Position numbers and translations under genes: made by a program. Under the pieces are notes generated by a model. That model did no database searches, was not told the origin of the DNA, and saw only the letters and a list, made by a program, of their open reading frames with translations. Below, in pieces: positions 21,964 through 52,525 of a stretch of 64,000 nucleotides of DNA (within the stretch, counting starts at the first letter, position 1; every line of letters begins with the position of its first letter). Source of the DNA: Dehalococcoidia bacterium (lineage in GTDB: Bacteria > Chloroflexota > Dehalococcoidia > GIF9 > UBA5629); the NCBI GenBank assembly GCA_003142375.1, contig PLME01000005.1, positions 114,582 to 178,581 on the forward strand. Reading direction: 5' to 3'.

Positions 21964-22037
21964 CGCGCCTGGAGGGATTCGAACCCACGACCCCCGGTTC
22001 CGAAGACCGATGCTCTGGTCCGCTGAGCTACAGGCGC
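21964..22037 (-). tRNA. tRNA-Arg (anticodon TCG)
   Basis: The minus-strand sequence GCGCCTGTAGCTCAGCGGAC...GGGTTCGAATCCCTCCAGGCGCG folds as a cloverleaf. 7-bp acceptor stem GCGCCTG/CAGGCGC, T-arm GGTTCGAATCC, anticodon loop CTTCGGA. Confidence 0.75.
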
Positions 22038-22367
22038 ATGACGAAAAATGAAGCTAAAATCGGCAATTTAAAAGTAGACATAACGGCACCAACGCCATTT
22101 TTGCTAATAATTTGCTAATAACGTTTTTCAAATGCCTTCATTTTCAGTCGAAGTATACTGGTTGCCAAAAGCATCGTCAAAGCGTTTAGCTGCTGCTTCT
22201 TGCATGCCAGTGGCTACATGGCGCCCTAACATTTCCTTTTGTCCTGGCAGGTGTTAAAATTAAATAGGAATTGTGATTAACGAAAGATCCCAAATAGATA
22301 TCCCGATAGACGTACACTTCAAATGCCCTTGTCAGCATAAAGCCGCAACGCGTAGGGGGTAGATACA

Positions 22368-22982
22368 ATGGCAATCGAAAGTGATGCTTCACAAAAGATG
22401 CTCAGCAGCCTCGTGCAAGTAGTAAACAGCATGGTCAACCTCCACGATCCCACCGCTGCCGGACACCAGTGCGACGTAGCCCTTCTCGCCAGGGCCATAG
22501 CCGAGGAAATGAGTAATGACCGGAAAGTGGTGGACTGCGTGTTTCTCGCTGGTCAGATACATGATATTGGCAAGATTGCCATACCATCCGAGATCCTCGC
22601 CTTCCCCGGCAAGCTTGACGATATTCAGCAGATGGTGGTAATGTGCCATCCCGAGGTCGGTTATGAGATTTTGAAGCCTATTGACTTCCCCTGGCCCGTT
22701 GCAGATGCCGTCCACCAGCACCACGAGCGGCTTAATGGGTCCGGTTATCCTTATGGCCTTACTGGAGATCAGATGAGTGTGGAATCAAAGATCCTCGCCG
22801 TAGCCGATGTCGTCCAGGCCATGCTCACAAATCGCTCTTACCACCCACCATTGGGGATAGAGAATGTCGTGCACGAACTGGAAGAGCACAAGGGAATTCT
22901 GTATGATGCCGAAGTGGTGGATTGCTACAAACGTATTTCAACCCGTAACGGTACCGGGTTAACTCGGTGCGGGAAGAGCTGA
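22368..22982 (+). CDS. stand-alone HD-GYP domain protein
   Basis: HDIGK ... HQHHERLNGSGYPYGL. RBS TAGGGGGTAG. Confidence 0.8.
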   Translation: MAIESDASQKMLSSLVQVVNSMVNLHDPTAAGHQCDVALLARAIAEEMSNDRKVVDCVFLAGQIHDIGKIAIPSEILAFPGKLDDIQQMVVMCHPEVGYEILKPIDFPWPVADAVHQHHERLNGSGYPYGLTGDQMSVESKILAVADVVQAMLTNRSYHPPLGIENVVHELEEHKGILYDAEVVDCYKRISTRNGTGLTRCGKS

Positions 22983-22990
22983 CCGCACAA

Positions 22991-23905
22991 CTAGCGTTCC
23001 AGGATATACTCGTCACCCGCTGAAGCTATAGAAATATTCTTCTTAGCCTGCTTAATGATGACCGGGTCTTGTGTCAGTTCCAGCACCTTCTTAAAATCGG
23101 CTATAGCCAGGTCATTCGTCTTCGAAAGGATATAGAGTATACCCCTGTTCATGTAAGCTTCCGGCATTTTGGGGTCCAGCTCTATTGCCTTGTTGAGGTC
23201 TGCCAGGGCCGCATCGTATTTGTCCATTTCATACAGAGCCCATCCCCTGTTGTTATAGGCAAAGGCCAGCTTCGAGTCAATCGCCAGTGCCCTGTTCAGG
23301 TCGGTAAGCGCCTGGTTCCAATCTCGCATCTTATCCAGGGCCCAGCCCCGGTTGCTGTAGGCATCCGCCAAAGTGGGGTCAAGTTCGACGGCGCGGTTCA
23401 GGGATACGATAGCTGCATCATAGGACTGGTCCAGGATTAAGGTCCTGCCCTGGTTATTATAAGCCTTGGCCAGGTTCTTGTACGCCGTGGAAGAGTTAAA
23501 GCCCAGTTGCAGCGCCATGTTCAGGTCTTCGATCGACTTATCGTAATCGCCGGTGCCGTCATAGGCCCAGCCCCGGTTATTGTAAGCCTCGGCCAGCTTG
23601 GGATCCAGCTGGATGGCCTTGTTCAAGTCATCGATGGCTCCGGTGAAATCCTTCTTATCGATGCGCGTTAGCGCCCGGTTGTTGTAGGCTGTGGCCAGCT
23701 TCTTATTGGCTTCCGGCATATCCGCCTTAAGATCAATGGCCTTCTGGTATTCGGCAATGGCGGTATCCCAGTTGCTTTGCTTGGCATTTGAGTCCCCCAG
23801 CCACATATGATCAGCAGACGAACCCGCGGCACATGCACAAATGGATAAAAGAAATACAGCTAGGAGCACGCTAAACCCAATGCGCATATTACACCTCTTT
23901 CTCAT
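22991..23905 (-). CDS. TPR-repeat lipoprotein
   Basis: Signal peptide with lipobox-like LSICAC. At least six TPR units with the AYNNRG / AYxNRG consensus. Confidence 0.7.
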   Translation of the reverse strand: MRKRCNMRIGFSVLLAVFLLSICACAAGSSADHMWLGDSNAKQSNWDTAIAEYQKAIDLKADMPEANKKLATAYNNRALTRIDKKDFTGAIDDLNKAIQLDPKLAEAYNNRGWAYDGTGDYDKSIEDLNMALQLGFNSSTAYKNLAKAYNNQGRTLILDQSYDAAIVSLNRAVELDPTLADAYSNRGWALDKMRDWNQALTDLNRALAIDSKLAFAYNNRGWALYEMDKYDAALADLNKAIELDPKMPEAYMNRGILYILSKTNDLAIADFKKVLELTQDPVIIKQAKKNISIASAGDEYILER

Positions 23906-24035
23906 ACAAGATTACCCATGCTGCTGACCGGATATATAAGCCTCTTGACCTGCCCTATCTTCCAGAAATAAACGGGGATTCTCGCCAGCATTGAATTCAA
24001 TCGAATAAACTGCCCGCCTGCGCGGGCGAGGAACC

Positions 24036-24248
24036 CTATTCATATACCGATTGCGTTACGTTAGCTTGGGTTGTGGGCACCAGTTCCCCGAACGAGCCGC
24101 CCACAAAAGAATACCCATGCGTGCTCTGGGTCGTGATGTTAAAACCGTAAATAGGTGTAACGGACAGCACCACCGAGAATATAATCAACGCCAGGACGAC
24201 GGCCAGTATCGTCTTGGACTGCCACTTCTTAAAATCTATTCCTGCCAA
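24036..24248 (-). CDS. small membrane-anchored protein (70 aa)
   Basis: ORF-track entry. One N-terminal TM helix after a basic segment. No recognised family. Confidence 0.3.
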   Translation of the reverse strand: MAGIDFKKWQSKTILAVVLALIIFSVVLSVTPIYGFNITTQSTHGYSFVGGSFGELVPTTQANVTQSVYE

Positions 24249-24415
24249 CTTTGCACCTCCGATTTGCCCTTCCAGCGCTGTGACACACTCTTTCTATCTA
24301 TTATAGTCTACTACGATTATAACAACCAGCATAATACCTGTCAATATGTTAACACAGCTATGTCCACGAAATAGCTGCAAGTATTTCTCCACGACCATTC
24401 CATAAGGGCAATTCC

Positions 24416-25258
24416 CTATTCTACCGCGTCAACATAGATATATAGAGGTTCCTTGAAATAAGGTTTTCCCTCGCCGCCTTTATATAGATAAAAATTAATT
24501 TTTTGGGCAGCACCCGCTTTTGCCAGGACAAAATCCACTTTTCCTTCCCACTTTGCTCCATCAGCAAGCGCCCAAGTCGACGTATCGCTAACCACATTTT
24601 CATCTGTGACTGCTCTGATCGAGTAGGCTGTCGTCTGGCTTTCATGGTTTATCACTACTGCCGTGATGGTTACATTGTCACCGGCCTTAATCTGCGTGGG
24701 ATAGTTCTCGGCCTGGCCTTCAGCGTTAAGGATATAGAATTCAGTCGGCGCCGGTTTCTCCGGCAGGGCAACTTCAAAATAGATTAGACTGCCCGCTATG
24801 CCAAATACCGCCAGCAATGCAGCAACCCACACAACCTTCTTTGCCCGCGGCATCCCCTGCCACCCTTCCCAGTGGGGTACCATTGATATGTAGAGGCGCA
24901 TTTCCACCGGCAGCACCAGTTCCCTGATGAATCCGATGATGGCGGCAATCAGTGTAAATGCCGCAACAGACAACAGTATTGGCATCAGCTTAATGCCCCA
25001 GGGTGTGAAATTCAGAAATAAGCCGATGATCGGCACGGCCGCAATGCTCACGCCGAAACTTAAGGCGATGCGCTCGACCATTCCTATATCAACCTGTTTT
25101 GGAAATAAAGCAGATAGCACAGCATACCCGGGGAAGAAGAGCAGGCACAGGAAACTCACGATAATGCGCACCGGGCCGGAGGTGAACAGGGCCAGGGGGA
25201 TTAGCGCTACCGTCAAAATGACTATTGCTGCCAGTATTACGCGGTTGTAGAATCTCAT
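24416..25258 (-). CDS. polytopic membrane protein with beta-rich extracytoplasmic C-domain (DUF1616-like); paralog of 29244..30140
   Basis: Four N-terminal TM helices, then EFYILNAEGQAENYPTQIKAGDNVTITAVVINHE. The second copy at 29244 shares this block (EFYVLGNEGKAENYPRDVKLG...VNHE). The DUF1616 family assignment is tentative. Confidence 0.5.
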   Translation of the reverse strand: MRFYNRVILAAIVILTVALIPLALFTSGPVRIIVSFLCLLFFPGYAVLSALFPKQVDIGMVERIALSFGVSIAAVPIIGLFLNFTPWGIKLMPILLSVAAFTLIAAIIGFIRELVLPVEMRLYISMVPHWEGWQGMPRAKKVVWVAALLAVFGIAGSLIYFEVALPEKPAPTEFYILNAEGQAENYPTQIKAGDNVTITAVVINHESQTTAYSIRAVTDENVVSDTSTWALADGAKWEGKVDFVLAKAGAAQKINFYLYKGGEGKPYFKEPLYIYVDAVE

Positions 25259-25959: not shown

Positions 25960-26199
25960 ATGGTAACGACGGTAACTATCAGCACAATCACGATCATCGC
26001 CGCCTCCAGTATAGTGGTAGGCATTGGTATATTCGCCACTGTATTGCTAATCGGCTTTCTCTCAACACGGGAATTACTCCACGCTGACGGCGGGGTTAAG
26101 CAGAAGCTGTTGGCTAAGTCGCTACTGGTTGGTATTATCCCGCTATTGATTGGTTTTCTTATCATTGTTGCTCTCAAAGTCGCCGAGATACTAGCTTAG
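25960..26199 (+). CDS. small hydrophobic membrane peptide (79 aa)
   Basis: Track ORF with two or three clear TM helices (ITIIAASSIVVGIGIFATVLLIGFL ... LLVGIIPLLIGFLIIVAL). GGGA-containing RBS. Its 3' end overlaps the CPBP gene. The competing minus-strand ORF 25926..26177 looks like its shadow. Confidence 0.3.
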   Translation: MVTTVTISTITIIAASSIVVGIGIFATVLLIGFLSTRELLHADGGVKQKLLAKSLLVGIIPLLIGFLIIVALKVAEILA

Positions 26200-26985
26200 A
26201 ATAAACGGCGCTATTAAGAATAAAACGACATTGGCAGTGCCGTGTGAAAGGATCGCTCCCAGCAGCGATCCTGTTCTTTTTACCATAGCAGCGAAAAACA
26301 AAGCCACAAAGAATACGAAAACGACGTCGCCCCACGAGTAGAAGCCCAGGTGCAGGACCGCGAAAATCAGGCTGACAAAGATAATCCCCTGCCGTCCCAT
26401 TGCCTTTTCAGACAGCTTCTGCAGGATGCCGCGGAAAATCAGCTCCTCTATCATGCCCGTTGTGATTATTAGCACCAGCGCTGGCAGCCAGATGCTCTGC
26501 AGCGAGAACGTATTTATTAACGGACTCGTACCGATAATAAGATACTCTACTAATCCTAATGCGGCGCCGCTGATAATGCCCCCGATGATCTGCAACGGCC
26601 AGTAGCGTAGGGTGAGGCCGACCTGGGCGGGCTTAAGGCCTGTCACCAGCATTACAACTATGGCAGCCGCTAACAAAGGAGTATAAATTATGGGAAACCT
26701 GAAGACCAGCGAGAGTTGTCCCAGGGGTAAAGCGATGCTCATGATACGTACCAGGGGCACCAGGCTCAGCGCCAATACCAGGTTTCTTTTCCCCGGATCC
26801 GATATGAAAACGGACTGAACGATAAATGCTGTGAGAATTAAACTATAGCCGATCACGCCGGCCAGCGGGTAAAGATAAACTGTCAATACCTCTGCCGCAG
26901 TAATGGCAACCAGGTATATCCAGAAAGGCCATGCTATAGCTTTAGATGAAGTCGATTCTATGGCTTTCACTTCACATTGATCCAT
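26191..26985 (-). CDS. CPBP family intramembrane metalloprotease (CAAX protease / Abi)
   Basis: All three CPBP motifs: EELIFRG (EExxxR), FAVLH (FxxxH) and HGTAN (HxxxN). 6-8 TM helices. Confidence 0.75.
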   Translation of the reverse strand: MDQCEVKAIESTSSKAIAWPFWIYLVAITAAEVLTVYLYPLAGVIGYSLILTAFIVQSVFISDPGKRNLVLALSLVPLVRIMSIALPLGQLSLVFRFPIIYTPLLAAAIVVMLVTGLKPAQVGLTLRYWPLQIIGGIISGAALGLVEYLIIGTSPLINTFSLQSIWLPALVLIITTGMIEELIFRGILQKLSEKAMGRQGIIFVSLIFAVLHLGFYSWGDVVFVFFVALFFAAMVKRTGSLLGAILSHGTANVVLFLIAPFILS

Positions 26986-27200: not shown

Positions 27201-29138
27201 GTGGCGGGCTATATGTATAGGGTATTCGGCCTCTTACTGATATTGGCGCTGGCCTTCTATCTGGCCTTCATCCCCCATATCGGCTATGCCTATCCGCTTC
27301 ATGGGGACGAGTGGATGCATATGACCTATGCTGAAACCATTGCCGGGACCGGCTCCATTACCTTTCCCGACCCCTTTACGGGCTTGACCGACATTAAATT
27401 GGGAGGCAACCTCTGGGTGGGCTATCATATCCTCTGGTCCATCTTCCAGCAGGTCAGCGGCATAGACTGGATAATTCTTTTCAGGTACTTTCCCTCCATC
27501 ATATTCATGCTTACCGTCCTGGCTGTCTATATCTTAGCCGCCAGGCAGGGCTACGGGTTGGAAGCTGCCTTCTTTACCTGCCTCATACCCACTACAGGCG
27601 GTCTGCTCGGCCCCGCCTTCATGGTTCCCATGGCTCTGGCCATGCTCTTCATACCGCTGTCGCTATTTCTCGCCTTCAATATAAAGAAGTGGCCTTCCTA
27701 CCCGCTGATATTTCTCTTTACCGGTTTCCTTTTGATATCCCACGCTACAACTGCCATCGCCCTCTGTATCATTCTGGCTCCCTATATCCTGTTAAATATC
27801 AAGGGGAATATCCGCCACGCAGCGGGAGTGTTGGCCGCCCTTGTTCTGCCCTTTGCCCTGTCATTGCCCTGGACTTTCCAGATAGCGGTTCAGACCGCCC
27901 GGCAATTGTTAGTACCGCAGTATTTCTCCCCTTTCATTGAGCTGCCTGACCTATTATTAGAGTATGGCTTATTGCCTATCGCCTTCAGCTTCATCGGTAC
28001 CGTCATATTAGTAATGAAGGGCGGCAAGAAAAACCTTGGTTTGGTGTCCGGGCTGGCTTTATTGCTCATCATAATGCTCGTATTTATCAGGTTCCATTAC
28101 GGTTTGTCCACGGTATATGAGCGTGGCCTGACAGCCATGCTGTTGATTTTAAGCATCCTTGCCGGCGCGGGATTATTCCGGCTGAGAAAGCTTAAGCTGC
28201 CCGCCAATTTTCTGGACAGACATAAATCCATTCTTCTCAGAAATAGCACTAATATAAGCTGTGTGTCTCTGGTTGTATTAATCCTCGCCGTTGCTATCCC
28301 AACCCGCCTCAATGCTGTCTTTTACCATATGATTGACGACGAAGACTACCGGGCATTTACCTGGATTAACGATCATGTTGGAACGGACTACAGTTCAGCA
28401 CTGGTAGATCCGTGGAAAGCCACGGCTTTCTCTGCCATCACCGGTAAAAAAGTCCTTCATAGGATATGGCCCAAGCAGGACCCGATTGACGATAGGATTT
28501 ACAGTTACCTGAAGGGTGGATGTCAGGACCCGGTTTTTCTGAGGGACAACAAGGTGTCCTTTATCTATAACCTGTTGCCATGCGATAATCGCGATTTGAT
28601 TGAAGTAAGTGACCGGGTATTTGTAACAAATCCAAATATATATGTTACTTTTGCAGCAAATGATCAGTTACAGAATGCCGGCTTCGAGGCCGTTTACGGA
28701 AATCCGCCTGCACACTGGGGGAAATGGTCACAGAATTGCAAACCCACTTTCCTGTATCCCGAACCGGGCCGGATCGGAGGGTCATCTGTCGCTATACAAA
28801 TGATGGAACTTGAACCATTTACGCCGTGGCCGCAAGCGATATGGCTTCAGAACATCCCGGTTCAGTCCGGTAAATCCTATACAGTTGGGGGCTGGATTAA
28901 AAGTGAAAATATTGAGGGAAAAGGCGGTGCAATGATTGTGCCTCAATGGAAAGGACCGGGGAATAAATGGATTAGTCAAACCGCGTTTATGCCATATCTG
29001 AAAGGGGCAACTGGCTGGACTTATTACCAGGGTAATGTCACCGCTCCGCCGGGAGCAACTATCTGCACAGTATGTTGCTTTATGGCTGGCTGTTCAGGTA
29101 CAGCCTGGTATGACGATATCTCATTCAAAGAGAAATAA
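27201..29138 (+). CDS. GT-C-like polytopic membrane glycosyltransferase with C-terminal carbohydrate-binding-like beta-sandwich domain
   Basis: About 11 TM helices with an acidic motif in the first extracytoplasmic loop (LHGDEWMH). The ~300-aa soluble C-domain ends with a CBM4/9-like segment (GGWIKSENIEGKGGAMIVPQW ... TAWYDDISF). No WWDYG motif, so it is not an AglB/PglB-type oligosaccharyltransferase. Confidence 0.4.
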   Translation: MAGYMYRVFGLLLILALAFYLAFIPHIGYAYPLHGDEWMHMTYAETIAGTGSITFPDPFTGLTDIKLGGNLWVGYHILWSIFQQVSGIDWIILFRYFPSIIFMLTVLAVYILAARQGYGLEAAFFTCLIPTTGGLLGPAFMVPMALAMLFIPLSLFLAFNIKKWPSYPLIFLFTGFLLISHATTAIALCIILAPYILLNIKGNIRHAAGVLAALVLPFALSLPWTFQIAVQTARQLLVPQYFSPFIELPDLLLEYGLLPIAFSFIGTVILVMKGGKKNLGLVSGLALLLIIMLVFIRFHYGLSTVYERGLTAMLLILSILAGAGLFRLRKLKLPANFLDRHKSILLRNSTNISCVSLVVLILAVAIPTRLNAVFYHMIDDEDYRAFTWINDHVGTDYSSALVDPWKATAFSAITGKKVLHRIWPKQDPIDDRIYSYLKGGCQDPVFLRDNKVSFIYNLLPCDNRDLIEVSDRVFVTNPNIYVTFAANDQLQNAGFEAVYGNPPAHWGKWSQNCKPTFLYPEPGRIGGSSVAIQMMELEPFTPWPQAIWLQNIPVQSGKSYTVGGWIKSENIEGKGGAMIVPQWKGPGNKWISQTAFMPYLKGATGWTYYQGNVTAPPGATICTVCCFMAGCSGTAWYDDISFKEK

Positions 29139-29243: not shown

Positions 29244-30140
29244 TTGAGGGGCTATTTTTTGAATTCACGGTTCAATATCGATCTGGCTCTGGTCTTGATC
29301 TTATCATTTATTCTAATTTTAATAATTCTTTTTATCCCGATTGATGCAATCAGGATCATTCTAGGGCTGCCGTTCATACTGTTTTTTCCGGGCTATACAC
29401 TGGTCGCCGCATTATTTCCCGGAAAATCCGGCTTACAGAGCGTAGAAAGGCTGGCACTGAGCATCGGTTTAAGTCTGGCTATAATGCCGCTTATCGGCCT
29501 GATCCTTAACTGCACGCCATGGGGTATAAGGCTCCACCCCATACTAATTTCCCTTACCGTCTTTATCATGGCGATGTGCACAATTGCTTTTTTACGGCGA
29601 AACCGTTTATCCGATGATGATAAATACGACTTCGGCTCTATGCTAACCATCCGCAAAGCCGGAGCAAAAGAAGTTCCTGCCACAGACGGCATGCCCTCCC
29701 TTAAAAAGAAAAAATGGATGGATAGACTGCTTAATATTGTACTGGCACTGGCCGCCGTTGTCTGTATTTGCACCATTGTTTATGCGATCGTAACACCGAA
29801 AACAGGCGAGAAATTTTCCGAGTTCTATGTACTGGGAAACGAAGGCAAGGCGGAGAATTATCCGCGTGATGTTAAACTGGGGTCTCCAATATTGCTTACT
29901 ATAGGTATTGTGAACCATGAACAGGCGGAAACTGTGTATACCGGTAAAGTGACTATTGACGGGGTCAATAATATTGCCTTACCCACGATAACGCTGGCTC
30001 CAGAGCAAAACCAGGAGCAGGTTATTTCGTTCACCCCCACCAAAGTGGGCCAGAGTCAGAAAGTGGAGTTTTTACTATTTAAGAATGCGGAGACAGAACC
30101 GTATTTAACGCTTCATATCTGGGTGAATGTGAGAAAGTAG
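29244..30140 (+). CDS. DUF1616-like polytopic membrane protein (paralog of 24416..25258)
   Basis: TTG start. N-terminus MRGYFLNSRF parallels MRFYNRVIL of the paralog. Shared FFPGY, GL.LNFTPWGI and EFY.L..EG.AENYP blocks. Confidence 0.5.
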   Translation: MRGYFLNSRFNIDLALVLILSFILILIILFIPIDAIRIILGLPFILFFPGYTLVAALFPGKSGLQSVERLALSIGLSLAIMPLIGLILNCTPWGIRLHPILISLTVFIMAMCTIAFLRRNRLSDDDKYDFGSMLTIRKAGAKEVPATDGMPSLKKKKWMDRLLNIVLALAAVVCICTIVYAIVTPKTGEKFSEFYVLGNEGKAENYPRDVKLGSPILLTIGIVNHEQAETVYTGKVTIDGVNNIALPTITLAPEQNQEQVISFTPTKVGQSQKVEFLLFKNAETEPYLTLHIWVNVRK

Positions 30141-31694: not shown

Positions 31695-31736
31695 CCCGAA
31701 GTCAAAATTTGATCTATACGCCTTGTTAATACAAAA

Positions 31737-38404: not shown

Positions 38405-38409
38405 ATCAG

Positions 38410-43326: not shown

Positions 43327-43350
43327 TCTATAAGTCTCGATAATATAAAA

Positions 43351-43384
43351 CTCCGCCATGGCTTGGCAGGCTTCGCTGGCGGAG
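43351..43384. repeat. inverted repeat CTCCGCCAT-N16-CTGGCGGAG, copy 3, directly 3' of the excisionase-family gene
   Basis: About 125 bp (43330..43470) align with 31715..31850, including the loop, GGGAGAAAACCCGTG and ATTCTAACAAAGCTTCA. Confidence 0.55.
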
Positions 43385-43518
43385 TCTGGCACAGGGAGAA
43401 AACCCGTGCTTGCCGTCTTATTCTAACAAAGCTTCATTGCCAACTCAATCAATATCAATCAGATTTACTACTGAACGAGGGATTGAGCGAGATATGCACA
43501 ATGGCATTTTACTTTGGG

Positions 43519-44634
43519 CTATTTAATGAGACGTTTCCCCATTAATTCTTGTTGTGCCTCCTGGGTTTTATCCATGGCTGGCTTGTCTTGTCCCCATTCA
43601 ATGAGTTCCCGCATGCCGTCTTCTAATTGAACTCTGGGAGCAAATCCCAGCCTCTGTTTTATTTTCGTGATATCCGCATAACAATGCCTAATGTCGCCAG
43701 TCCGGTATTTGCCAACTACAACCGGCTTAATATTCTTATTGCAGAGCTTTATCAGAACTTCGGCGATTCGGCTGACTGAAACACTCCGGCCGGCAGCAAC
43801 ATTGAAGGTTTCGTAATCAGCCTCTTTCTTGTTCAGGGCCAGTAGATTTGCCTGCACAATATCATGTACCGAAGTGAAATCCCTGAGTTGCCGGCCGTCC
43901 TCATATAGTAACGGTGGCTTATTATTTTTGATAAGTGACAGGAAAATGGCCGCTACTCCCGTATAAGGATTGGACATAGATTGCCGAGTCCCGTAGGTGC
44001 AAAAGAATCGCAGGGCAACTGTAGGAATCTTATAGGTTTTGCCAATAGTCAGGCACATTTCCTCAACATCGCGTTTACCTATTGCGTAAATGCTGGTAGG
44101 TGATAATGGCCTGCTTTCAGCCGTTGGAATGGGTTCAACTTTTTTTCCGCAATCAGGGCACTTCATTTCCCAATCCCTGGCTAGAAGTTGTTTCTCACTC
44201 CTCGGCTCCGGGTACACTACTCCACATGCAGCACAGCTATATGAGCCTTCACCATAGATTGTATTGGAGGATGCGACCACAAGCTTTTCTACATCATATT
44301 TGCCGCTTGCCAAAACTTCCAGGAGTTTAGCAGTGGCGAAGGTGTTGACATCAGTGTACTTTTCTATCTGGTACATCGATTGTGCGACACCCACCATGGC
44401 AGCAAAGTGAAAAATGACATCGATATTTTTAAGCGCCTTTTTCAGCGCTGGCTTACTCCTCACATCCGCGTTAATGAACTCGGCATCTTTATTGAGATAG
44501 TCAGGCACTTTATCATGCACTTGAGGCTCCAGGTTGTCGATAATCCTGACTTTATGGCCCTCATTTATTAAAGCATCAACCAGATGGCTGCCTATAAAAC
44601 CGGCTCCCCCGGTAACTAAAATCCGTTTTGGCAT
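43519..44634 (-). CDS. NAD-dependent NDP-sugar epimerase/dehydratase (extended SDR) with inserted Cys4 zinc ribbon
   Basis: TGGAGFIGSH Rossmann motif and YAIGK (YxxxK). About 45-aa insertion CAACGVVYPEP...CPDCGKK. Confidence 0.75.
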   Translation of the reverse strand: MPKRILVTGGAGFIGSHLVDALINEGHKVRIIDNLEPQVHDKVPDYLNKDAEFINADVRSKPALKKALKNIDVIFHFAAMVGVAQSMYQIEKYTDVNTFATAKLLEVLASGKYDVEKLVVASSNTIYGEGSYSCAACGVVYPEPRSEKQLLARDWEMKCPDCGKKVEPIPTAESRPLSPTSIYAIGKRDVEEMCLTIGKTYKIPTVALRFFCTYGTRQSMSNPYTGVAAIFLSLIKNNKPPLLYEDGRQLRDFTSVHDIVQANLLALNKKEADYETFNVAAGRSVSVSRIAEVLIKLCNKNIKPVVVGKYRTGDIRHCYADITKIKQRLGFAPRVQLEDGMRELIEWGQDKPAMDKTQEAQQELMGKRLIK

Positions 44635-44647
44635 ATCCCTTTTCCCA

Positions 44648-45595
44648 TTATCGATTATTCAAGGTGCTTTTGAACCAGTTCACTGTTTTAGTTAAACCTT
44701 CTTTTAAATCAACCTTTGGAACCCATCCTAAAATAGTCTGTGCCCTGCCGATATCCGGTCTCCGCCGTTTGGGATCATCCCCGGGCAGAGGTTGGAATAT
44801 TATTTTATTGGATGTACCTGTGATATCTTTGATGACCTGCCCCAGCTCCAGCATATTTTTTTCATTTGGGTTGCCGAGATTTATCGGATCACTGTAATTG
44901 GCGTTCATCAGCCTGTAAATGCCGTCGATCAGGTCAGAAACATAGCAGAAGCTGCGCGTCTGTTTGCCGTCGCCAAAGATAGTCATCGGCTGGCCCGTCA
45001 AAGCCTGGGTAATCAGGTTGGGAACTACCCGGCCGTCCTCGTTTTTCATCCTGGGCCCATAGGTATTGAATATCCTGACGATGCATGTATCCACACCCAG
45101 TTTACGGTGGAAAGCCATGGTAAGCGCTTCGGCAAACCTCTTGGACTCATCATACATCGAACGGGGACCTACAGGGTTTACATTGCCCCAGTATTCCTCT
45201 TTCTGCGGGTTCTGCAGTGGATCGCCGTAGACCTCGGATGTAGACGCCATCATAAATTTGGCCCTTTTCCGGTGTGCCAGTTCCAGCGCATTCAAGGTAC
45301 CCAGAGAGCCAACTTTTAAGGTTTCAATGGGCAGTCTGGCATAGTCGACCGGGCTGGCCAGGCTGGCGAAATGCAATACGAAATCAACTTTGCCACGGAT
45401 TTTTAGGTTTTCGCTGACGTCAGTCTGTATGAATTTGAATAATTTATTGTTTGACAGGTGTTCGATGTTGGCAAGCCGGCCGGTGATAAGGTTGTCCACG
45501 CAGACAACCCTATAGCTATGTTCAAGTAAGAAATCGCAGAGATGGGAACCAAGGAACCCTGCGCCGCCGGTGATGACTACAATCTGTCGCTCCAT
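44648..45595 (-). CDS. UDP-glucuronate decarboxylase (UDP-xylose synthase)
   Basis: [16 protein letters not shown]...[18 protein letters not shown] closely follows the UXS consensus. YxxxK is present. The track ORF extends to 45715, but the ATG of [11 protein letters not shown] is at 45595. Confidence 0.75.
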
Positions 45596-45638
45596 TCCAG
45601 CCCTCCGGTTTTGCATTATTCTCTCATATACTAATAGT

Positions 45639-47000
45639 CTATTGCCAAACGCCCCTGTTGAGGTCCAGCGTGACATTATTGTCTGGCGGCGGCAGGTCTT
45701 TCCATAGGCTGTCAACCAGGTCCTTCCTGAGCTCGACGCCTATCCATGCCATCGGGCTCAGTCCGTTTTCCTGTATGGCCGGCTGTCCGGCTGGCAGTTT
45801 TTCGTCCCCGGCCATATGGGCTACAACAGCGCGGGCCACCTGTGCGGCCAGCTTCTGCGCCTCGGCGCCGTCCACACCGTATGAAGCAATCATACTCGCG
45901 GCTGTCGCCGCCACGCCATTCTCCAGCTGTGCCTCGGCATATCCTTGTAAATCGCTCGGGTGGGATGCTATAGATTGTATGTGCGCCGTGCGTATGGCGG
46001 CTTTTTGTGCCCCGTCGATATTTATCACCCGGTAGGGGCAGGGAAAGGTGATTAGCGAGCCGGTTTCCACATCGAAGAGGAATTTACTTGTATCCGGCCA
46101 GGCTCTCTCCGTGATGTCCTGCGCATGGAAGTGCCCGGTGAATACCAGGCGTACATTATATGCGGCCAATAATCTGGATACCGCCTGATAATTTTCTATT
46201 ACGTATTCCGGGAAGTTCCTGGCCTGCCCATCGAAATGCTCGGTCACCGGATGATGCTCCATGGCGATCACAGCTTTGCCGGCCCTGGCCGCCTTGGCCA
46301 GCACCTCCTCTATCCATCCCAGCGTCTGCGGGCTGAACCTGCCTGCCGTGACCGTTTCCTCTTCCCCTACCTTGCCTTGGTAACGGCATGAGTCCAGGGC
46401 CAGCAGCCAGAGCCCTTCCTGGGGCTCGGCCACGTAGCTGAGCGAGGCAGAGTCCCGGTAAAGGGCATCTTTATACCCGAAGTCACCGTAAATCTGCGCA
46501 AATTCTTCAGCCGTGATATTGCGGATGCGCAGCGCAATATCGCCCGCATATCTGACGGCATTGGCGTTGTCGATATCATGGTTGCCGGGTACGACGTAAA
46601 CCTTTTTACCGCTTGCTTGCAACTGCTCCAAATACTGCACAACAAGCTCGTGGGAGGAGCGGTCGCCATGATCGGTCAGATCGCCGGGCACTAGTACGAA
46701 GCTGACATTTTCACTATTTATCTGCCCGACTGCCGTCTGCAATATCTCGGCGCTTTCTTTGATCAGCTTATAGTCCCCCGCAACGTAATTCTCAAAGGCC
46801 TTGCCGTCCGTGCCAAGATCAGGATTGTAGGTATGCAGATCAGTCATTACTGCGAAATTTACCTGGGGATAGGCAGGAGGCTTATCCAGAAGTGCCTTTA
46901 GGGTGGGATCCGTCTCATGACTTAACGGCTGCTGCGCGATGCAGCCAATATCAACCAGCATCAGAAGGACAATAAGGGCCAGGTAAACTATTCTCGTCAT
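45639..47000 (-). CDS. secreted calcineurin-like metallophosphoesterase
   Basis: Signal peptide (lipobox-like DIGC). Motifs [19 protein letters not shown]. Confidence 0.7.
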
Positions 47001-47251
47001 TTACACAGGGTGATACGTATTTATTATGCTAAAAGTAAGAATTTAAATATTATAAGGCCTGGCAGGTTGGAAGTCATATATTAACCAAGTTGACATTTGT
47101 GATAAAATTATGAGAGTATTAAGTAATTTGATGGTCGTATTGACAAATGATGTGGTCGGAATCTGTAGGAATATTGCCGATATGACCGCCTTCTATATTG
47201 ACATTCAGATTGTAGCGTTTGTTCCTCATACTTCCCCGTACAGGAGGCATC

Positions 47252-50200
47252 ATGCGGATTAAATTCCCGGCTATTATAAGAGTGATCGCCAGTATGCTGG
47301 CGGTTGCCGCATTTATCATCCCTGCTCACATGGCTTTACCTGCAGATGTATCCGCTGACCCGGGCATCATGAGGTGGGATACGGTCATTACCCCGGGGTA
47401 TATGGAGAATAAGTGGGATATCGACAATCTGCATGGCGTAGGCGCCAACACCGGCCAGGGAAGCGAGATCCTCGACATAGCTGCCGGCAAAGACGGCAAA
47501 ACTGTGGTCGCTATCGTCAGGATGTGGTTTCCGCAGACCGATGGTCAGGTAGCTTCCCCTTCCCCGACCGGATTATATAAAAACATTATACTTATATCTA
47601 CTAATGGTGGCATAACCTTTTCAGACTCTCAATATCGATTTCAATTCCCCACTCCTGCAACAGCTCCCAATTTCTTCCAGGTTGAGATTGCCTCTGATAA
47701 TCCCAGGGTTGTGGTGCTGACCTCCTCGACCTACGGAGGAACTGGCGGCCCCAAAATGGTCTGGGAAACAGGTTGGGTGAGAGGCGATAGTCCCTGGACC
47801 ACCATCTTTAATGGCACCGGCCTGGAAGCTAGTGAAACCATCAGATGTGTGGATGTCTCCGCCGATTACGGAGGCTTTCGCGATATAGCTTTTGGTACCG
47901 TCAACGGCACCAGCGGCGGACGCTGGGCCACCATATCGACCAGGCCATTTGGCTCCATCCAGGTTCAGCTCAATGCCAATGGCACACCGGCCGTCGCCTT
48001 CGGCAGCCCCCCATTGCCCACTACCTCCGGCATCGACTACCACGCCGTTAAATTTTCACCAACTTACAATGGCGATGGTTCCGTGGCTCTGGTTTATGCC
48101 GATACCAGTGCTACCTACTATAATGTGGCTTTTCGTGACCTCAACCAGAACACCACTTTGAGCTATGCTTTCGGCTCGACCGGCATTGAGGTTAAGGACC
48201 CTGCTTCCGCCCCGGGCAGCTCGCCGAGCTGGTCGCAGCTGAACAAGACGGATTTGGAACTCCCCTCCGACTTCTCGGGCCAGTCCTCCTCGTTGCGCAG
48301 GGCCTATATAAGTCTGGATGCAAGCGGCAGCAAGAGCCCTACTTCACAGGATGGAATTTACAGGATCGACGATTCGACAACTTATGTTTTGATGGATACA
48401 TCTGCGACACCCGATAAGGCCATATACAACATCGCCTATTATGGCACTTACGCCTCGGGCAAGCTGCTGGCCGGCGAGCGCATGGGCCAGCCATGTACCG
48501 CTACCGTCCCCACCTGGTTCACGGATTCCCCGACTACCTGTCCCATCCCCTGCTGGTACCCTGCCCTCAAGTCCACCACCGGCGCCGGCAACCAGGGAAC
48601 ATGCAGCACCGGCTCCAAGAACGGCGTCGGCGCGGCCGTAGTCCACTGGAATGGTGACGGCTCGCTGGGCCTGGTAGCCACCGGCTCACTTCCCGATAAT
48701 GTAGTCCCAGGCCTTACCGGTTTCACCACCGGCAAAGGAATTGAGATACCCGGCACTCCGTATGTTGTAGTAGGGGGGAAAGGCAATTGGTGGGAGCTTC
48801 AGTTAACAGACCCCAAGGATAATGATGAATCGGCCTTCGCCATCTCCCGCAATAACGGCGAGACCTGGAACCAGTTGGCCATAATCGATACCACCATCGA
48901 CTGGTTTAACGATGTGGCCGTCGCCCCAGATTGCTCCACCATTTACCTGGCCTCCGCCAATGAGAACGTAGGCATAGGCTGCAACGAGTTCGATAGCGTA
49001 TGGCGCGCCACCCTTAATCCCAACGTCGCAGCGCCTCTTCCCGTGATCCCGCCGCTGGGCACCTACTGGGAGCGCGTATTGGCCCGTACGACTTCAGGCA
49101 ACTGCCTCGTCCCGCAGTCTGAACTTCCTATCCTGCGCGTGGTAGAATCCTGCACCGACAAGAAAGACGGTGAGATCGTAGGCTGGGCCGCACAGAACGC
49201 CAAAGCCACAGCCGCAGCCAATTCCGGCGGCGTGATGGCCTGGTCGCCCGACTTCGGCGACTACTGGGCCACCGTCACCCCCAGGTATCCCGTGCAGGAC
49301 TTCGTTTTTGAAACCAGCACCACGATGTACGTAGTCAGCGCAGACGGCGTTGTCCAGAGGCTGCCCTACACCGGCACCTCCTGGTCCACCAACCTGCCCA
49401 ACTATGACACCGAGCTGCTCTTCGCTCACACCATCGCAGCCGTTCCTGATGGTAAGGTCCTGGTCGGCGGCGCCAAACATTCACCTTATCCCGGCGCATA
49501 CTCGCTTGACAAGGCCGTCACCCTCAACGTAATGGCCGATCCTATACCCAACCATGGCAACGAACACATGATCTTTGACGTCGACTTCGCCAACAACCAG
49601 TTCTTCTACATGGCCGATGATGCTGCTGCAGCAACCGGCCTGGGCACCGTCTACCGCAACACCGTACCGTCACTCGGCAGGTGGGTAGACAACGACATGA
49701 TGAGCGCTGCCAACGGCAACGGCTATGTCTTCGCCCTTGAACCGCAACTCTGGTGGTCGGCAACCGGCATCAATAATCCTCCTCACATCATCGGCCAGTA
49801 CGGTATCGTGCAGGCATTCACGGGCGATCCTCAGCCTGCTCTTTACGTGGCCCATGACAACCTGACCCTTTACAACAGCAACGGTTATGCAGACAGCGCA
49901 GTTTGCCGCACACTCAGACCTCGCGATGGCATGCCCAAACCGGGCATCGCATGGGCTTGTCTCGATGTGTTCGCACCGCTGACTCAGAAAGGCGTGCTGT
50001 TCACACTCGAGCCGACCTCGCTCAAAGCCTGCGGCTGCTGCTCCCTTGACACCAACACCACCCTTTACGCCATCGACAACGAGTCAGGTGGACGCTGGAA
50101 TGGGCACTGGAGTTTTGATGGCGTCAATTACTTTGATCCTAACGTCTACGGCAAACTGGGCTATACTCCGATAGTTAACCAGGGCATGCTCTGGGCATAC

Positions 50201-51052
50201 ACCGACTGCCTGGCCAAGAAAGGCCCGGCACTCAAGAGCCCGGCTGACCAGTTCTTAGTCGGCGCTGACCCGGTCACCGGCCGCAACTCACAGATCGACC
50301 TCTCATGGGAACAGCTCTGTCTGACAGTCTGGTATCAACTCCAGATAGCCAAAGATAAGGACTTTACCCTGAGGGTCAACCCCTCGGTCAACTGGGGCAA
50401 CGGCTCCACCGGCGTCATCTCCTCAGTGACAGGCTCGTTGCTGATGAAGATGGACTCCACCAACAACACCAGCCCGGCTGCCTGGATTCCTCCTGGATCA
50501 TTGCCTGAAGCAGGCGCGATCTACTACTGGAGGATTCGCTCGGCTAAATCCGCTACCAGCCAGATTGCCAACAGCCCGTGGTCCGAGGTTCGCAGCTTCA
50601 CCGTCAAAGCAGGCTTCCAGACCATTAGCCCCTACTATGGCGTACAGCTGCTCAGCCCGGCCAACAGCGGCATCGGCATAGCGACCAAACCGACCCAGTT
50701 CTCCTGGAGCCCCTGGCAAAATGCCACCAAGTACGAGTTCGACCTGGCTAAGGATTCCGAGTTCAAGCAGATGGTTACCACCGCCAATACCACTACCACA
50801 GCTTACCAATACCCGAATGCCCTGGACTACAATGCCGTCTATTTCTGGCGTGTAAAGGCCCTCGAGGTCAACGGCCAGAACATCCCGAGTGATTGGTCGG
50901 CCACCTTCAGCTTTACGACAGAAAAGGTCCCGGTCATACCTCCGCCCCCCACCGAGCCTGCTATTCCCCTTTGGGTCTGGGTCGTTATGGCGCTGGGTAG
51001 CATTCTCGCCGTCGCCGCTCTCTTCTTGATCATGAGAACCAGACGCATTTAA
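47252..51052 (+). CDS. giant BNR/Asp-box-repeat cell-surface protein with C-terminal TM anchor
   Basis: Track ORF from TTG 47219. ATG at 47252 has AGGAGG 6 nt upstream. Signal peptide. Several S-x-[DN]-x-G-x-T-[WF] Asp-box-like repeats (STNGGITFS, SRNNGETWNQ). C-terminal Fn3-like modules (YYWRIRS, YFWRVKA). Terminal PPPPTEP-TM-RTRRI. Confidence 0.7.
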   Translation: MRIKFPAIIRVIASMLAVAAFIIPAHMALPADVSADPGIMRWDTVITPGYMENKWDIDNLHGVGANTGQGSEILDIAAGKDGKTVVAIVRMWFPQTDGQVASPSPTGLYKNIILISTNGGITFSDSQYRFQFPTPATAPNFFQVEIASDNPRVVVLTSSTYGGTGGPKMVWETGWVRGDSPWTTIFNGTGLEASETIRCVDVSADYGGFRDIAFGTVNGTSGGRWATISTRPFGSIQVQLNANGTPAVAFGSPPLPTTSGIDYHAVKFSPTYNGDGSVALVYADTSATYYNVAFRDLNQNTTLSYAFGSTGIEVKDPASAPGSSPSWSQLNKTDLELPSDFSGQSSSLRRAYISLDASGSKSPTSQDGIYRIDDSTTYVLMDTSATPDKAIYNIAYYGTYASGKLLAGERMGQPCTATVPTWFTDSPTTCPIPCWYPALKSTTGAGNQGTCSTGSKNGVGAAVVHWNGDGSLGLVATGSLPDNVVPGLTGFTTGKGIEIPGTPYVVVGGKGNWWELQLTDPKDNDESAFAISRNNGETWNQLAIIDTTIDWFNDVAVAPDCSTIYLASANENVGIGCNEFDSVWRATLNPNVAAPLPVIPPLGTYWERVLARTTSGNCLVPQSELPILRVVESCTDKKDGEIVGWAAQNAKATAAANSGGVMAWSPDFGDYWATVTPRYPVQDFVFETSTTMYVVSADGVVQRLPYTGTSWSTNLPNYDTELLFAHTIAAVPDGKVLVGGAKHSPYPGAYSLDKAVTLNVMADPIPNHGNEHMIFDVDFANNQFFYMADDAAAATGLGTVYRNTVPSLGRWVDNDMMSAANGNGYVFALEPQLWWSATGINNPPHIIGQYGIVQAFTGDPQPALYVAHDNLTLYNSNGYADSAVCRTLRPRDGMPKPGIAWACLDVFAPLTQKGVLFTLEPTSLKACGCCSLDTNTTLYAIDNESGGRWNGHWSFDGVNYFDPNVYGKLGYTPIVNQGMLWAYTDCLAKKGPALKSPADQFLVGADPVTGRNSQIDLSWEQLCLTVWYQLQIAKDKDFTLRVNPSVNWGNGSTGVISSVTGSLLMKMDSTNNTSPAAWIPPGSLPEAGAIYYWRIRSAKSATSQIANSPWSEVRSFTVKAGFQTISPYYGVQLLSPANSGIGIATKPTQFSWSPWQNATKYEFDLAKDSEFKQMVTTANTTTTAYQYPNALDYNAVYFWRVKALEVNGQNIPSDWSATFSFTTEKVPVIPPPPTEPAIPLWVWVVMALGSILAVAALFLIMRTRRI

Positions 51053-51353
51053 TTTGTTTTGGATTAGGTTTTGTTTTAGGTTTGTTTTGAAACCGGTTCG
51101 TTATTGATTCTTTTTTAAATAGGCTTTGTATTGGGCTTATTTTAAAAACCGATTCGTTTTTGATTCGTTTTTGATTCGTTTTAAATAGGCGTCGTAGCTG
51201 ATTTGTGCTGAAATAGATTTGTTTTAGGTTTGTTTTGAAACTGGTTCGTTTTTGATTCGTTTTAAATAGGCGTCGTAGCTGATTTATGCTGAAATAGATT
51301 TGTTTTAGGTTTGTTTTTTAGATACAAGTCATAGCTGATTTGTTTCTCGAAAT
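51053..51353. repeat. degenerate tandem repeats (about 3.5 units of 65-98 bp) in the 3' UTR of the giant protein gene
   Basis: The unit GATTTGTTTTAGGTTTGTTTTGAAACTGGTTCGTTTTTGATTCGTTTTAAATAGGCGTCGTAGCTGATTTGTGCTGAAATA recurs head-to-tail. It contains internal GATTCGTTTTT x3 sub-repeats. AT-rich and non-coding. Confidence 0.6.
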
Positions 51354-51388
51354 AAAAAAGGGGCGGGCCTCAGGCCCGCCCCTTTCTA
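51354..51388. terminator. bidirectional rho-independent terminator
   Basis: AAAAAA-GGGGCGGGCC-tca-GGCCCGCCCC-TTTCT. A perfect 10-bp GC stem. There is a T-tract on the plus strand and a longer one (TTTTTTATTT) when read on the minus strand. Confidence 0.6.
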
Positions 51389-51612
51389 TATGTCCTGGTT
51401 ATAGTGAATTACCGTCATTTATACTATAGATCGAATGGAAGCGCCGTAGTCTTCCAATCTATAATTGAGAATATGTAGAAATCATGGCGGCAATGCGGCG
51501 ACAGGGATGTTACGGGAGGTCAAGTTAACTCTTGGTTGGGAACAATACTTATACAGGCTATTAAGTCATGGTAAAATGGCTGTATTTCGCATTGTTGATA
51601 CAGACAAGTATG

Positions 51613-51846
51613 CTAATGATACGCTTCGTCATATTGTTTCTTAGCTTTAGCAAGTTCAACTTGGGCATCAAACCATTCTTTGGCTAGTCTATCTGTTTCC
51701 TGTGTTTCAATGGTATCTATCGGTTGTACTGGTGACCCAATATATCGTCTAGCCTCCATCTCTTCATATTTCTTGATTATCACCTCCCATCTTCTATAGC
51801 ACTCGTAGAAATTATTAGTTGCATATTCTTTTGATAACTTCTCCAT
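51613..51846 (-). CDS. hypothetical small protein (77 aa, charged/helical)
   Basis: Track ORF in the AT-rich segment at the island edge. No family recognised. Confidence 0.3.
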   Translation of the reverse strand: MEKLSKEYATNNFYECYRRWEVIIKKYEEMEARRYIGSPVQPIDTIETQETDRLAKEWFDAQVELAKAKKQYDEAYH

Positions 51847-52119
51847 TATGCCCGAAGACCTCCCAAACGATGATTTTAATAATTATACCAGCCTAGTCAA
51901 TCGTTTTAATGAAGCATACGTGTGTCGAAGGAATGGATCAATGATATCAATTAATAGAAAGCACAGGTGCGCAGAGAGTGAAAAGCCAAAGATCAGCAGC
52001 TAACATTACCTTGGAAAAACACACTGTGAAACAGCCAGCAGGCACGATGACGCTGTTTAATTTATACTTTTGGAGCATAAATATTATCCTTTAGGGCCTT
52101 CAATACCCCGAGAATTAAT

Positions 52120-52317
52120 GTGATACTGAATGAAATGGTAGGAGGTCTTTATATGGAGATAGAACACGCCGTGCACGTGAGCGAGTTACAAGCCATATTA
52201 GCTTGCGATCAGAGTGATGGATATCTTAAGAAATTGGCTAAAGACCGGCTTGAGTCAATTGAGCAGCAAGCCCAATCAGTAGCTAACCTAAAAAAGGTCC
52301 CTGCTCTGATAGCCTGA
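52120..52317 (+). CDS. hypothetical small protein (65 aa)
   Basis: Track ORF, AT-rich. No family recognised. Confidence 0.25.
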   Translation: MILNEMVGGLYMEIEHAVHVSELQAILACDQSDGYLKKLAKDRLESIEQQAQSVANLKKVPALIA

Positions 52318-52505
52318 CTTATTTCATTTCGGTTAGAGGCCCGCAGCAGATATGCATAATTCTGCAGCCTGCCTATTTTATTTACCAAATATTACAACAA
52401 ATAGCTGTTATATTGCCCATGATACCACCCGACCAGGCAAAAGCTTATATCAGGCTCTTAGAGGGCGTTTTGCACTATCCTAGCACTATCCTTAGATATT
52501 GAAGA

Positions 52506-52525
52506 CGCTGAGCTACAGGCGCATG
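52506..52525 (-). repeat. tRNA-Arg 5' fragment (20-bp exact direct repeat of 22021..22040); candidate att core
   Basis: CGCTGAGCTACAGGCGCATG is identical at both sites. It equals 3 nt of 5' flank plus nucleotides 1-17 of the tRNA-Arg gene. The flanking bases differ on both sides. Confidence 0.7.

Follow-up and report, generated by a model that had tools for sequence, protein, structure and literature searches.

A probable integrative island in the 5' part of a tRNA-Arg gene holds what appears to be a native cell-envelope locus of peat Dehalococcoidia

Islands that occupy a tRNA or tmRNA gene classically duplicate its 3' part (anticodon loop, T-loop, or 3' end), and the tRNA keeps its own promoter (PMC4383910; Williams 2002 cited there). 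What, then, is to be made of a tRNA gene whose 5' part is the duplicated one? The question is raised by a 64,000-nucleotide (nt) stretch of contig PLME01000005.1 (assembly GCA_003142375.1, positions 114,582 to 178,581), hereafter the window; record names and relatives assign its source population to the Dehalococcoidia of Stordalen Mire peat. Here about 30.5 kb separates an intact tRNA-Arg(TCG) gene from a displaced copy of its own 5' end, next to tRNA-His(GTG). We read this segment, with a probability of about 0.72, as a decayed, integrase-deleted integrative island in the 5' part (acceptor strand plus D-arm) of tRNA-Arg(TCG). The comparisons establish four things: precise insertion relative to empty sites; duplication of the attachment (att) core; an integrase remnant with a relative, in locus L139, at the same core; and native cargo.

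The 20-mer (CGCTGAGCTACAGGCGCATG) occurs exactly twice in the window with up to three mismatches allowed, both times on the plus strand in direct orientation (Table 1), and none of 100 dinucleotide-preserving shuffles yielded two matches. Start to start the copies lie 30,485 nt apart, with 30,465 bp (22041-52505) between them, and their flanks diverge immediately on both sides. As placed by ARAGORN and Rfam, copy 1 comprises a 3-nt flank and tRNA-Arg nt 1-17, that is, the 5' acceptor strand and D-stem together with the D-loop as far as G17; copy 2 starts 32 nt past tRNA-His, and this displaced fragment stays with the tRNA-His promoter. Along the tRNA strand the order is: an acyl-CoA dehydrogenase gene (ACAD); tRNA-His; a 32-nt spacer; CAT plus tRNA-Arg nt 1-17; the insert; CAT plus the complete tRNA-Arg; and an acetoacetate-decarboxylase-family gene (ADC). 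An initial annotation, made from the sequence alone, had described the two copies, their divergent flanks, and the use of the tRNA 5' part in these terms, and alignment of the copies with their flanks bears it out. The window holds no other tRNA-Arg fragment longer than 15 nt, the sole longer match being a 17-nt T-arm common to tRNA-His; for the island ends and the internal repeats, Rfam gives no structured RNA beyond the two tRNAs.

Both junctions are found again, 100% identical, in assemblies made independently from several samples: L001-L006 and L009 for the Arg side, and L011, L012, and L014-L017 for the His side (L-numbers designate compared loci). They are therefore not an artefact of one assembly record.

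Relatives were found by a scan with the ADC protein, one genome per species, the close ones at 87-97% amino acid (aa) identity. In three of them, UBA1162 (L019), SPRUCE 613 (L021), and the closed 2.46-Mb chromosome OY970123.1 (L023), an intact tRNA-Arg(TCG), identical in sequence to that of the window, stands 32-35 nt after tRNA-His. The order at these empty sites is: ACAD; tRNA-His; spacer; intact tRNA-Arg; ADC; and PAS-HD-GYP and PAS-GGDEF genes, with 0.14-2.2 kb between tRNA-Arg and ADC (143 nt in L023). BLASTN shows the right flank collinear with these loci through the His-Arg spacer, ending exactly at 52506, where the 20-mer has its inner edge; from ADC (21739) onward homology returns and spans the entire left flank, at 80-88% nt identity. 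Gene order by protein comparison agrees. This collinearity confirms an ancestral tRNA-His/tRNA-Arg tandem, which the initial annotation had postulated together with an empty site in relatives. It had made its case hang on two points, and both came out in its favour: relatives do hold the empty site, and the 20-mer is not dispersed. By comparison with these genomes, the 30.5 kb would be an insertion between tRNA-Arg nt 17 and 18, accompanied by a 20-bp duplication.

What agent could have made such an insertion? No integrase had been noticed anywhere in the window, and for intact genes this stands: a Pfam scan of open reading frames (ORFs) across the window gave no intact recombinase, nor does the annotation of L001 and L011. 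The last codons of one survive, however, beside the regenerated tRNA. This remnant ORF (MLGRHVATGMQEAAAKRFDDAFGNQYTSTENEGI, followed by a stop; read from 22232 to 22128) is identical at 22 of 30 residues to the repaired integrase of L139 (BLASTP, E=9e-15). L139 (ENA ERZ25039512, contig_55003) was reached via relatives of a small His-side gene, here called S. Its tyrosine-integrase catalytic domain matches PF00589 (102 bits, E=3.5e-29, profile positions 5-169 of 172) after repair of two frameshifts, at least one of them in a homopolymer run, which we ascribe to sequencing error.

L139 contains an exact copy of the 20-mer (4358-4377), and the integrase reads toward it from immediately upstream. 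The distance from integrase stop to core is 84 nt in L139, as against the 87-nt spacer in the window. The adjoining 185 nt of the window (22041-22225) align with L139 at 72.8% over 206 nt (E=3e-24), and TTTTAGCTTCATTTT, next to the core, is conserved between the two. Spacer and integrase tail are absent from the empty-site genomes, and 22041-22225 has a G+C content (GC) of 0.405 versus about 0.527 in the flanks. The homology of tail and spacer to L139 indicates that the island once had an integrase directly upstream of the rebuilt tRNA, reading toward it. Site-specific integration into a tRNA gene, as first proposed, is supported by this remnant along with the empty sites and the att duplication.

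Integrase homology ends at about 22222, and homology to the left boundary of the cargo starts at 22226-22232, with short microhomology at the junction; the same cargo boundary was seen in three different contexts. A core-like sequence at this junction (GCGCCATGTAGCC) was considered as an att site; it does not convince as one, being explained by integrase codons H-V-A plus the microhomology. A split (suicidal) integrase was likewise rejected: neither end has int(N) or int(C) ORFs, and no integrase-like ORF runs across either 20-mer.

These features suggest a course of events. A tyrosine integrase at the tRNA-side island end would have recombined the att site of the element (CAT plus the tRNA-Arg 5' end) with the chromosomal gene. 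The original 5' fragment would have been left behind tRNA-His and its promoter, and the element would have supplied a new 5' end and upstream region, rebuilding a complete tRNA-Arg. Later, most of the integrase gene would have been deleted at microhomology with the left boundary of the cargo, the last ~100 nt surviving. The attP junction is expected to read ...GCTTCATTTTTCGT-CATGCGCCTGTAGCTCAGCG-TCTTCAATATCTAAGG..., and an empty attB carrying CAT, ...GTTTG-CATGCGCCTGTAGCTCAGCG-GACCAGAGC.... Without an integrase, the island is probably fixed in place.

Insertion into the 5' part would also separate the tRNA from its promoter. The native promoter, an extended -10 box (TGgTATAAT) just upstream of tRNA-His, is now 30 kb away across the insert. 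Inside the integrase tail, facing the tRNA, lies a promoter-like TTGACG-17-TATACT (22180 to 22152), conserved at L139 4219-4247. We infer that this sigma-70-like promoter now probably transcribes tRNA-Arg; the tail may have been retained because it drives that gene.

A second motif may bear on the recombination site. TTAGC occurs 17 times on that strand of L139 (13 kb), and six of these copies crowd into a 275-nt stretch that extends to both sides of the core. In the window, three lie upstream of tRNA-Arg and none at the His-side end. The spacer may contain candidate arm-type binding sites; if TTAGC marks such sites, the attL of the window has lost its arm.

The next question concerns what the island carries. 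The initial annotation saw accessory cell-surface functions, an excisionase-family gene, and compositional heterogeneity, and by implication took them for a foreign load. That view does not survive comparison: about 29 kb of the cargo, Locus B, appears from homology and gene order to be the clade's own cell-envelope locus, situated at other chromosomal sites in relatives. Window positions 22226-51320 and 51904-52502 are homologous to the loci of relatives at 72-90% nt identity, like the flanks; the only stretches that the native locus does not match are 22041-22225 and 51321-51903. In L132-L140, the neighbours of Locus B are ordinary chromosomal genes, without a tRNA. The left part of the insert (HD, TPR, DUF1616, CAAX protease, and 645-aa protein) is conserved in L134-L138 beside LepA, CoA-ligase, PAS, and DUF1648 genes, or beside TPP-enzyme and SDR genes. 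In L132 and L133, the orthologue of the 1277-aa surface protein is preceded by a string of genes: thymidylate-kinase-like; four glycosyltransferases; UDP-glucose dehydrogenase; HTH_17; epimerases; and metallophosphoesterase. It is followed by S26 peptidase, ferredoxin, rubrerythrin, and FeoB genes, again without a tRNA. The surface protein itself has hundreds of Dehalococcoidia homologues.

The supposed excisionase is indeed an HTH_17 gene, and its presence at the same internal position in L132 and L133 argues that it is part of the native locus, not an island excisionase. The GC mosaic is also real: 0.459 in the insert versus 0.526 and 0.528 in the flanks; 0.42 across the low-GC core of 29.2-45.0 kb, which falls to 0.29 at 34-35 kb; and 0.549 at 45.0-51.05 kb. 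Orthologous blocks in relatives are much alike (0.446 vs 0.449, 0.543 vs 0.554, and 0.496 vs 0.517), so the mosaic is a property of the locus and no sign of recent foreign origin.

Several repeats were seen within Locus B. A direct repeat of ~235 nt (31617-31849 and 43228-43464, with a third copy of 66 nt at 32001-32066; 87-97% identity) consists of the HTH_17 3' part and a conserved hairpin (CTCCGCCAG...CTGGCGGAG) without an Rfam match; its two long copies bracket the lowest-GC glycosyltransferase block, and its motif also follows HTH_17 in L132, L133, and L134. The AT-rich ~81-nt repeats are kept after the surface-protein orthologue in L132, L133, and L140, and L140 has three tandem copies of the last ~126 nt of the surface-protein gene. 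The 1277-aa protein is a 28%-identical paralogue of a 1075-aa protein in the right flank (54904-58131); neither has informative Pfam domains beyond weak Ig-like and Sortilin matches.

The AT-rich His-side end with its orphan ORFs, singled out in the initial annotation, also proves mostly native, since relatives have the repeats and gene S; 51321-51903 remains without a homologue among the compared loci. S and the sequence downstream of it, E_R, match L140 at 90% nt identity up to 52437 and L139 at 86% up to 52502; past the E_R homology, the integrase promoter and gene come next in L139. Members of the S family occur only in Dehalococcoidia, in varied contexts: after tRNA-Arg (L019, which has two copies after its intact gene, and L152); after S26 peptidase (L139, L140); after UDP-Glc dehydrogenase (L153); and between PAS and GAF genes (L141). 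With homologues in such unrelated contexts, S was rejected as a marker of the element. The His-side end was also rejected as a mobile backbone, with no matches in phage and plasmid collections; the 65-aa and 77-aa proteins had none in IMG/VR. Likewise, a transposon-like insertion or casposon was set aside: no terminal inverted repeats pair the ends, and Pfam finds no transposase or Cas1 domain.

How did a native locus come to lie within a tRNA gene? The order in L139 is: surface protein; S26; S; E_R; integrase promoter and gene; spacer; and core with tRNA-Arg nt 18-40, after which the sequence continues with a restriction-modification/PIN segment. The window joins E_R to the His-side 20-mer, and the integrase tail to the opposite end of the cargo. 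From these final junctions, the only steps directly observed, we infer a likeliest route of capture beside the integrase, inversion, and then deletion. An element standing next to the locus, as in L139, would have carried the locus into tRNA-Arg; an inversion of the cargo block would then have broken the DNA at the edge of the core and immediately upstream of the integrase promoter; and a microhomology-mediated deletion between the left boundary of the cargo and the integrase tail would have followed. A secondary att site at the boundary between E_R and the integrase promoter was considered for the inversion and rejected as too weak, L139 sharing only an in-register 5-nt TACAG. The full proposition, that a 5'-tRNA-Arg element captured a ~29-kb envelope locus as a unit bounded by att sites and (once) transferable between strains, with the integrase tail domesticated as a tRNA promoter, is tentative, and we regard it as rather doubtful.

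Several observations weigh against an integrative island in tRNA-Arg. Recombination itself was not observed, and the window is without an intact integrase or excisionase. Position -2 is A in both window copies and C in all three empty-site relatives, which needs a crossover at the extreme 5' edge or a lineage single-nucleotide polymorphism. In L139, tRNA identity reaches nt +40, not +17, for a core identity of 43 nt versus 20 in the window (the original core may have been longer than 20 bp), and the L139 core, in an attP-like setting, is contiguous with chromosome-like DNA. The cargo block is inverted relative to the integrase-core module of L139, and native cargo makes simple integration of a foreign element insufficient: no fewer than two additional rearrangements must be assumed. 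The promoter-like site matches a consensus within conserved codons, and two such hits were found versus 1.0 +/- 1.2 expected, which is no notable excess. Neither an attP junction nor a circular form turned up, but the one metagenome scan missed even the junction of this strain and is uninformative either way; that scan, for tRNA-Arg nt 1-17 followed by a non-G base, gave 48 loci, all from outside this lineage. In IMG/VR, relatives of the L139 integrase (39-48% identity) have no tRNA in the compared flanks, and hence say nothing on 5' targeting.

Two of these comparisons brought incidental finds. The L139 segment after the truncated tRNA-Arg (4873-9468) encodes an Eco57I/MmeI-type restriction-modification methylase, an HSDR_N-like protein, and a PIN_4 protein, and is a defence-type segment attached to the same att region. 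The unrelated metagenome contig L125 (Ga0209102_1002097, minus strand, ~6710-6728) has the tRNA-Arg 5' 17-mer, 11 nt, and a complete tRNA-Arg(CCG), and is a miniature of the fragment-plus-gene arrangement.

Could the locus have arrived by rearrangement, without dedicated integration? The envelope locus would then have moved by homologous or illegitimate recombination (inversions or translocation) between dispersed element remnants, namely integrase-core modules and S genes, and the 20-mer would be the rest of a longer duplicated stretch. The native cargo found elsewhere in relatives, the longer core identity in L139, and the dispersal of S fit this account. So does the neighbourhood: the junction of Locus B with the integrase tail lies at microhomology, with a second microhomology deletion next door, and the same tRNA is broken elsewhere in relatives, at about nt 44 in L020 and nt 40 in L139. 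Rearrangement does not readily yield a perfect direct repeat exactly at the edge of homology with the empty sites, or an integrase tail and spacer in canonical position and orientation beside the core; one crossover with a circle, and not inversion, is what leaves direct repeats around an insertion. We therefore consider it unlikely.

Far less plausible is a recently acquired foreign island from a distant donor, a view that most of the cargo already contradicts. In its favour had been the low GC of the 29-45 kb core (0.29-0.45), the heterogeneous composition, and the HTH_17 gene, along with the DUF1616 matches of the Pfam scan, a family described in Pfam as mainly archaeal. Relatives have orthologous blocks of the same order and GC, with HTH_17 in the same position in L132 and L133; nt identity to relatives is 77-87%, matching the flanks; and the surface protein has its many Dehalococcoidia homologues and a flank paralogue.

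A chance repeat, a local tRNA-Arg duplication without insertion, or an assembly chimera of two tRNA contigs is barely credible: tRNAs are prone to chimeric joins, L013 switches inside tRNA-His, and several assemblies break at 49.2-49.95 kb, but the shuffles, the restriction of the 20-mer to two copies in the window, and the identical junctions in many independent assemblies all speak against it, and contigs of the two sides overlap by 784 bp inside the intact 1277-aa ORF.

The contigs named in that argument deserve description. L013 (GCA_003171355.1, PMYC01000045.1; 11350-11862) is a same-strain contig with 99.96% identity over 11.4 kb. Within the tRNA-His T-arm it switches to a different T-arm, followed 10 nt on by a different tRNA-Arg(TCG) and then, just before the contig end, by GC-rich DNA with an HTH_26 gene. 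It was set aside as a same-strain empty site, being most likely an assembly chimera at shared tRNA k-mers. Several independent assemblies start or end at ~49169-49953, inside the 1277-aa gene (L011, L014, and L015 stop at 49.76-49.95 kb, and an ENA scaffold starts at ~49.17 kb), which suggests strain heterogeneity or a repeat there.

The surroundings of the tRNA pair are themselves unsettled, and the breaks in L020 and L139 mark tRNA-Arg as a recombination hotspot. L020 (CAWJIA010000001.1) keeps only a decayed tRNA-Arg 3' remnant (2465-2500), next to a second acyl-CoA dehydrogenase gene (ACAD2), a hydrolase gene, and ADC. The remnant is joined to inverted Aminotran_3 and DUF6206 genes, which in L141 are found close to an S gene; L020 has undergone a distinct rearrangement that broke the same tRNA. 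ACAD2 and the alpha/beta-hydrolase gene are intact in L020; in the window, the 3' end of the one is fused to the 3' end of the other at a microhomology (GCTGGACTTCC) between tRNA-Arg and ADC. Two ADC-family genes flank the tRNA pair (20929-21738 and 53977-54801). In L022, L024, and L025, the ACAD/ADC-like pair lies in inverted orientation immediately beside ADC, without tRNAs between. Gene order across these genomes suggests that ACAD and the two ADC-family genes form a conserved metabolic cluster, into which the tRNAs would have been inserted in some lineages.

Table 1. Features of the window from the ADC-proximal junction to tRNA-His
Feature	Position	Strand	Basis	Remark
Host DNA with deletion scar	21739-21962	(-)	comparison with L019, L020, L021	tRNA-Arg to ADC
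tRNA-Arg(TCG), intact	21963-22038	(-)	ARAGORN; Rfam RF00005 21964-22037, 64.4 bits	regenerated target, attR side
20-mer copy 1	22021-22040			att core at attR; CAT + tRNA-Arg nt 1-17 on tRNA strand
Spacer, integrase stop to tRNA	22041-22127	(-)	homologous to L139 4274-4357	87 nt; element-derived
Tyrosine integrase 3'-terminal remnant	22128-22232	(-)		~30-34 codons, just upstream of regenerated tRNA
Cargo, Locus B	22226-51320		Pfam; collinearity with L132-L140 at 72-87% nt identity	putative cell-envelope locus of the clade
Locus B HD	22368-22982		Pfam	
Locus B TPR	22991-23905		Pfam	
Locus B DUF1616, two genes	24416-25258; 29244-30140		Pfam	
Locus B CAAX protease	26191-26985		Pfam	
Locus B 645-aa protein	27201-29138			
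Locus B flippase	30220-31509		Pfam	
Locus B GH28-like	32062-33300		Pfam	
Locus B phosphodiesterase	35214-36740		Pfam	
Locus B glycosyltransferases	37415-41550		Pfam	
Locus B UDP-Glc dehydrogenase	41577-42836		Pfam	
HTH_17/MerR-type gene	43117-43326	(+)	Pfam	69 aa
Locus B epimerases	43519-45715		Pfam	
Locus B metallophosphoesterase	45639-47000		Pfam	
Locus B surface protein	47219-51052			1277 aa
Locus B AT-rich repeats	51053-51320 (as a side observation, to 51345)			~81 nt, tandem-like, GC 0.30, directly after surface-protein gene
Segment without homologue among compared loci	51321-51903			in place of the S26 signal-peptidase gene of L139, L140
Perfect 14-bp hairpin	51357-51385			
77-aa ORF	51613-51846	(-)		
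Dispersed gene S and downstream E_R	51904-52505	(+)		S, 65 aa, 52120-52317; E_R ends 0-3 nt from His-side 20-mer
20-mer copy 2	52506-52525			displaced tRNA-Arg 5' fragment, nt -3 to +17; attL remnant
tRNA-His(GTG)	52558-52634	(-)	ARAGORN, Rfam	first gene of ancestral His-Arg tandem

Which known systems does the island resemble? Dehalococcoides ssrA islands (McMurdie et al. 2011) reportedly use a serine recombinase and a 20-bp repeat and target the 3' end of ssrA; unlike them, the present island has the 5' end of tRNA-Arg and a tyrosine-type recombinase (PF00589). With classical tRNA islands it shares an intact tRNA gene (tDNA), a displaced fragment in direct orientation, and empty sites in relatives; the duplicated part is the difference.

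The nearest likeness is to the arg2 islands of Klebsiella pneumoniae, which occupy the tRNA 5' end (D-loop sublocation) upstream of the tDNA and have integrases of clade I.d (bioRxiv 10.1101/2020.11.02.365908). Both have a tRNA-Arg target, use of the 5' acceptor, D-stem, and D-loop, an island upstream of the regenerated tDNA, and a tyrosine integrase; the likeness is one of target sublocation, and the integrase of the L139 relative is assigned to PF00589. Unlike arg2, the present case lies in the Chloroflexota (Dehalococcoidia), its integrase is reduced to the last ~30 codons, its target is the second gene of a tRNA operon, and its cargo is a native cell-envelope locus.

The pTN3-like integrases of Thermococcales plasmids and proviruses use the tRNA 5' half as attB, and the rebuilt tRNA uses an integrase-side promoter; such 5' integration is "seldomly encountered in bacteria" (PMC8371274). 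The use of the 5' half and the dependence of the rebuilt gene on an integrase-side promoter, here a putative one, are common to both. Unlike this bacterial island, pTN3-type elements are archaeal, and pTN3 attP lies inside the integrase ORF, giving int(N) and int(C); here the core stands 84-87 nt past the stop, and there are no halves. The dusA-specific integrases also target a gene 5' end, and their elements must restore that end and the expression signals (PMC4482086); the likeness ends there, dusA being a protein-coding target, in Proteobacteria, of a different integrase family.

In its decay the island may be likened most closely to a cis-mobilizable element (CIME), perhaps one in which a single att site is still usable. 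CIMEs are decayed integrative conjugative or mobilizable elements that keep attL and attR and have lost the genes for integration and transfer (PMC5704250). Like them, the island is flanked by att sites, with both cores intact and the recombination module lost; since TTAGC, the candidate arm motif, is confined to the Arg side, it is doubtful that the island could be mobilised even in cis. Pfam finds no conjugation or mobilisation genes in the window or the compared L139 segment, and there is no evidence of a conjugative ancestor.

Islander looks for a complete tDNA and, oriented alike, a tDNA fragment at the terminus, the two bracketing the island, and allows a 5' fragment upstream or a 3' fragment downstream (PMC4383910). 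The window has tDNA and fragment on the same strand, with the 5' fragment upstream and an uninterrupted target in L019, L021, and L023; in place of an island-encoded integrase there is only a 34-codon C-terminal remnant. On our reading the island is a further case of the rare but documented 5'-end (D-arm) class of tRNA integration, and the 5' core, which the initial annotation rightly called unusual, is less of an anomaly than it assumed.

Together, three points stand out: the unusual sublocation of the insertion; a native surface locus, apparently captured; and what may be the domestication of a promoter. Integration into the tRNA 5' end (D-arm) is rarely reported in bacteria, and this locus adds a clean case from uncultured Chloroflexota that can be compared with empty sites and with a related module of integrase plus att. 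The integrase tail with its conserved promoter offers a testable example of host dependence on expression signals supplied by an element.

Moreover, the marks by which an island is usually recognised (a tRNA bracket, odd GC, and an HTH gene) can surround a core-like surface locus that belongs to the lineage itself; island predictors that take these marks for foreign DNA call for care. Should the captured-locus reading hold, it would describe a route for exchanging whole cell-surface loci among peat Dehalococcoidia, and such exchange would bear on the evasion of phages and predators in permafrost-thaw communities.

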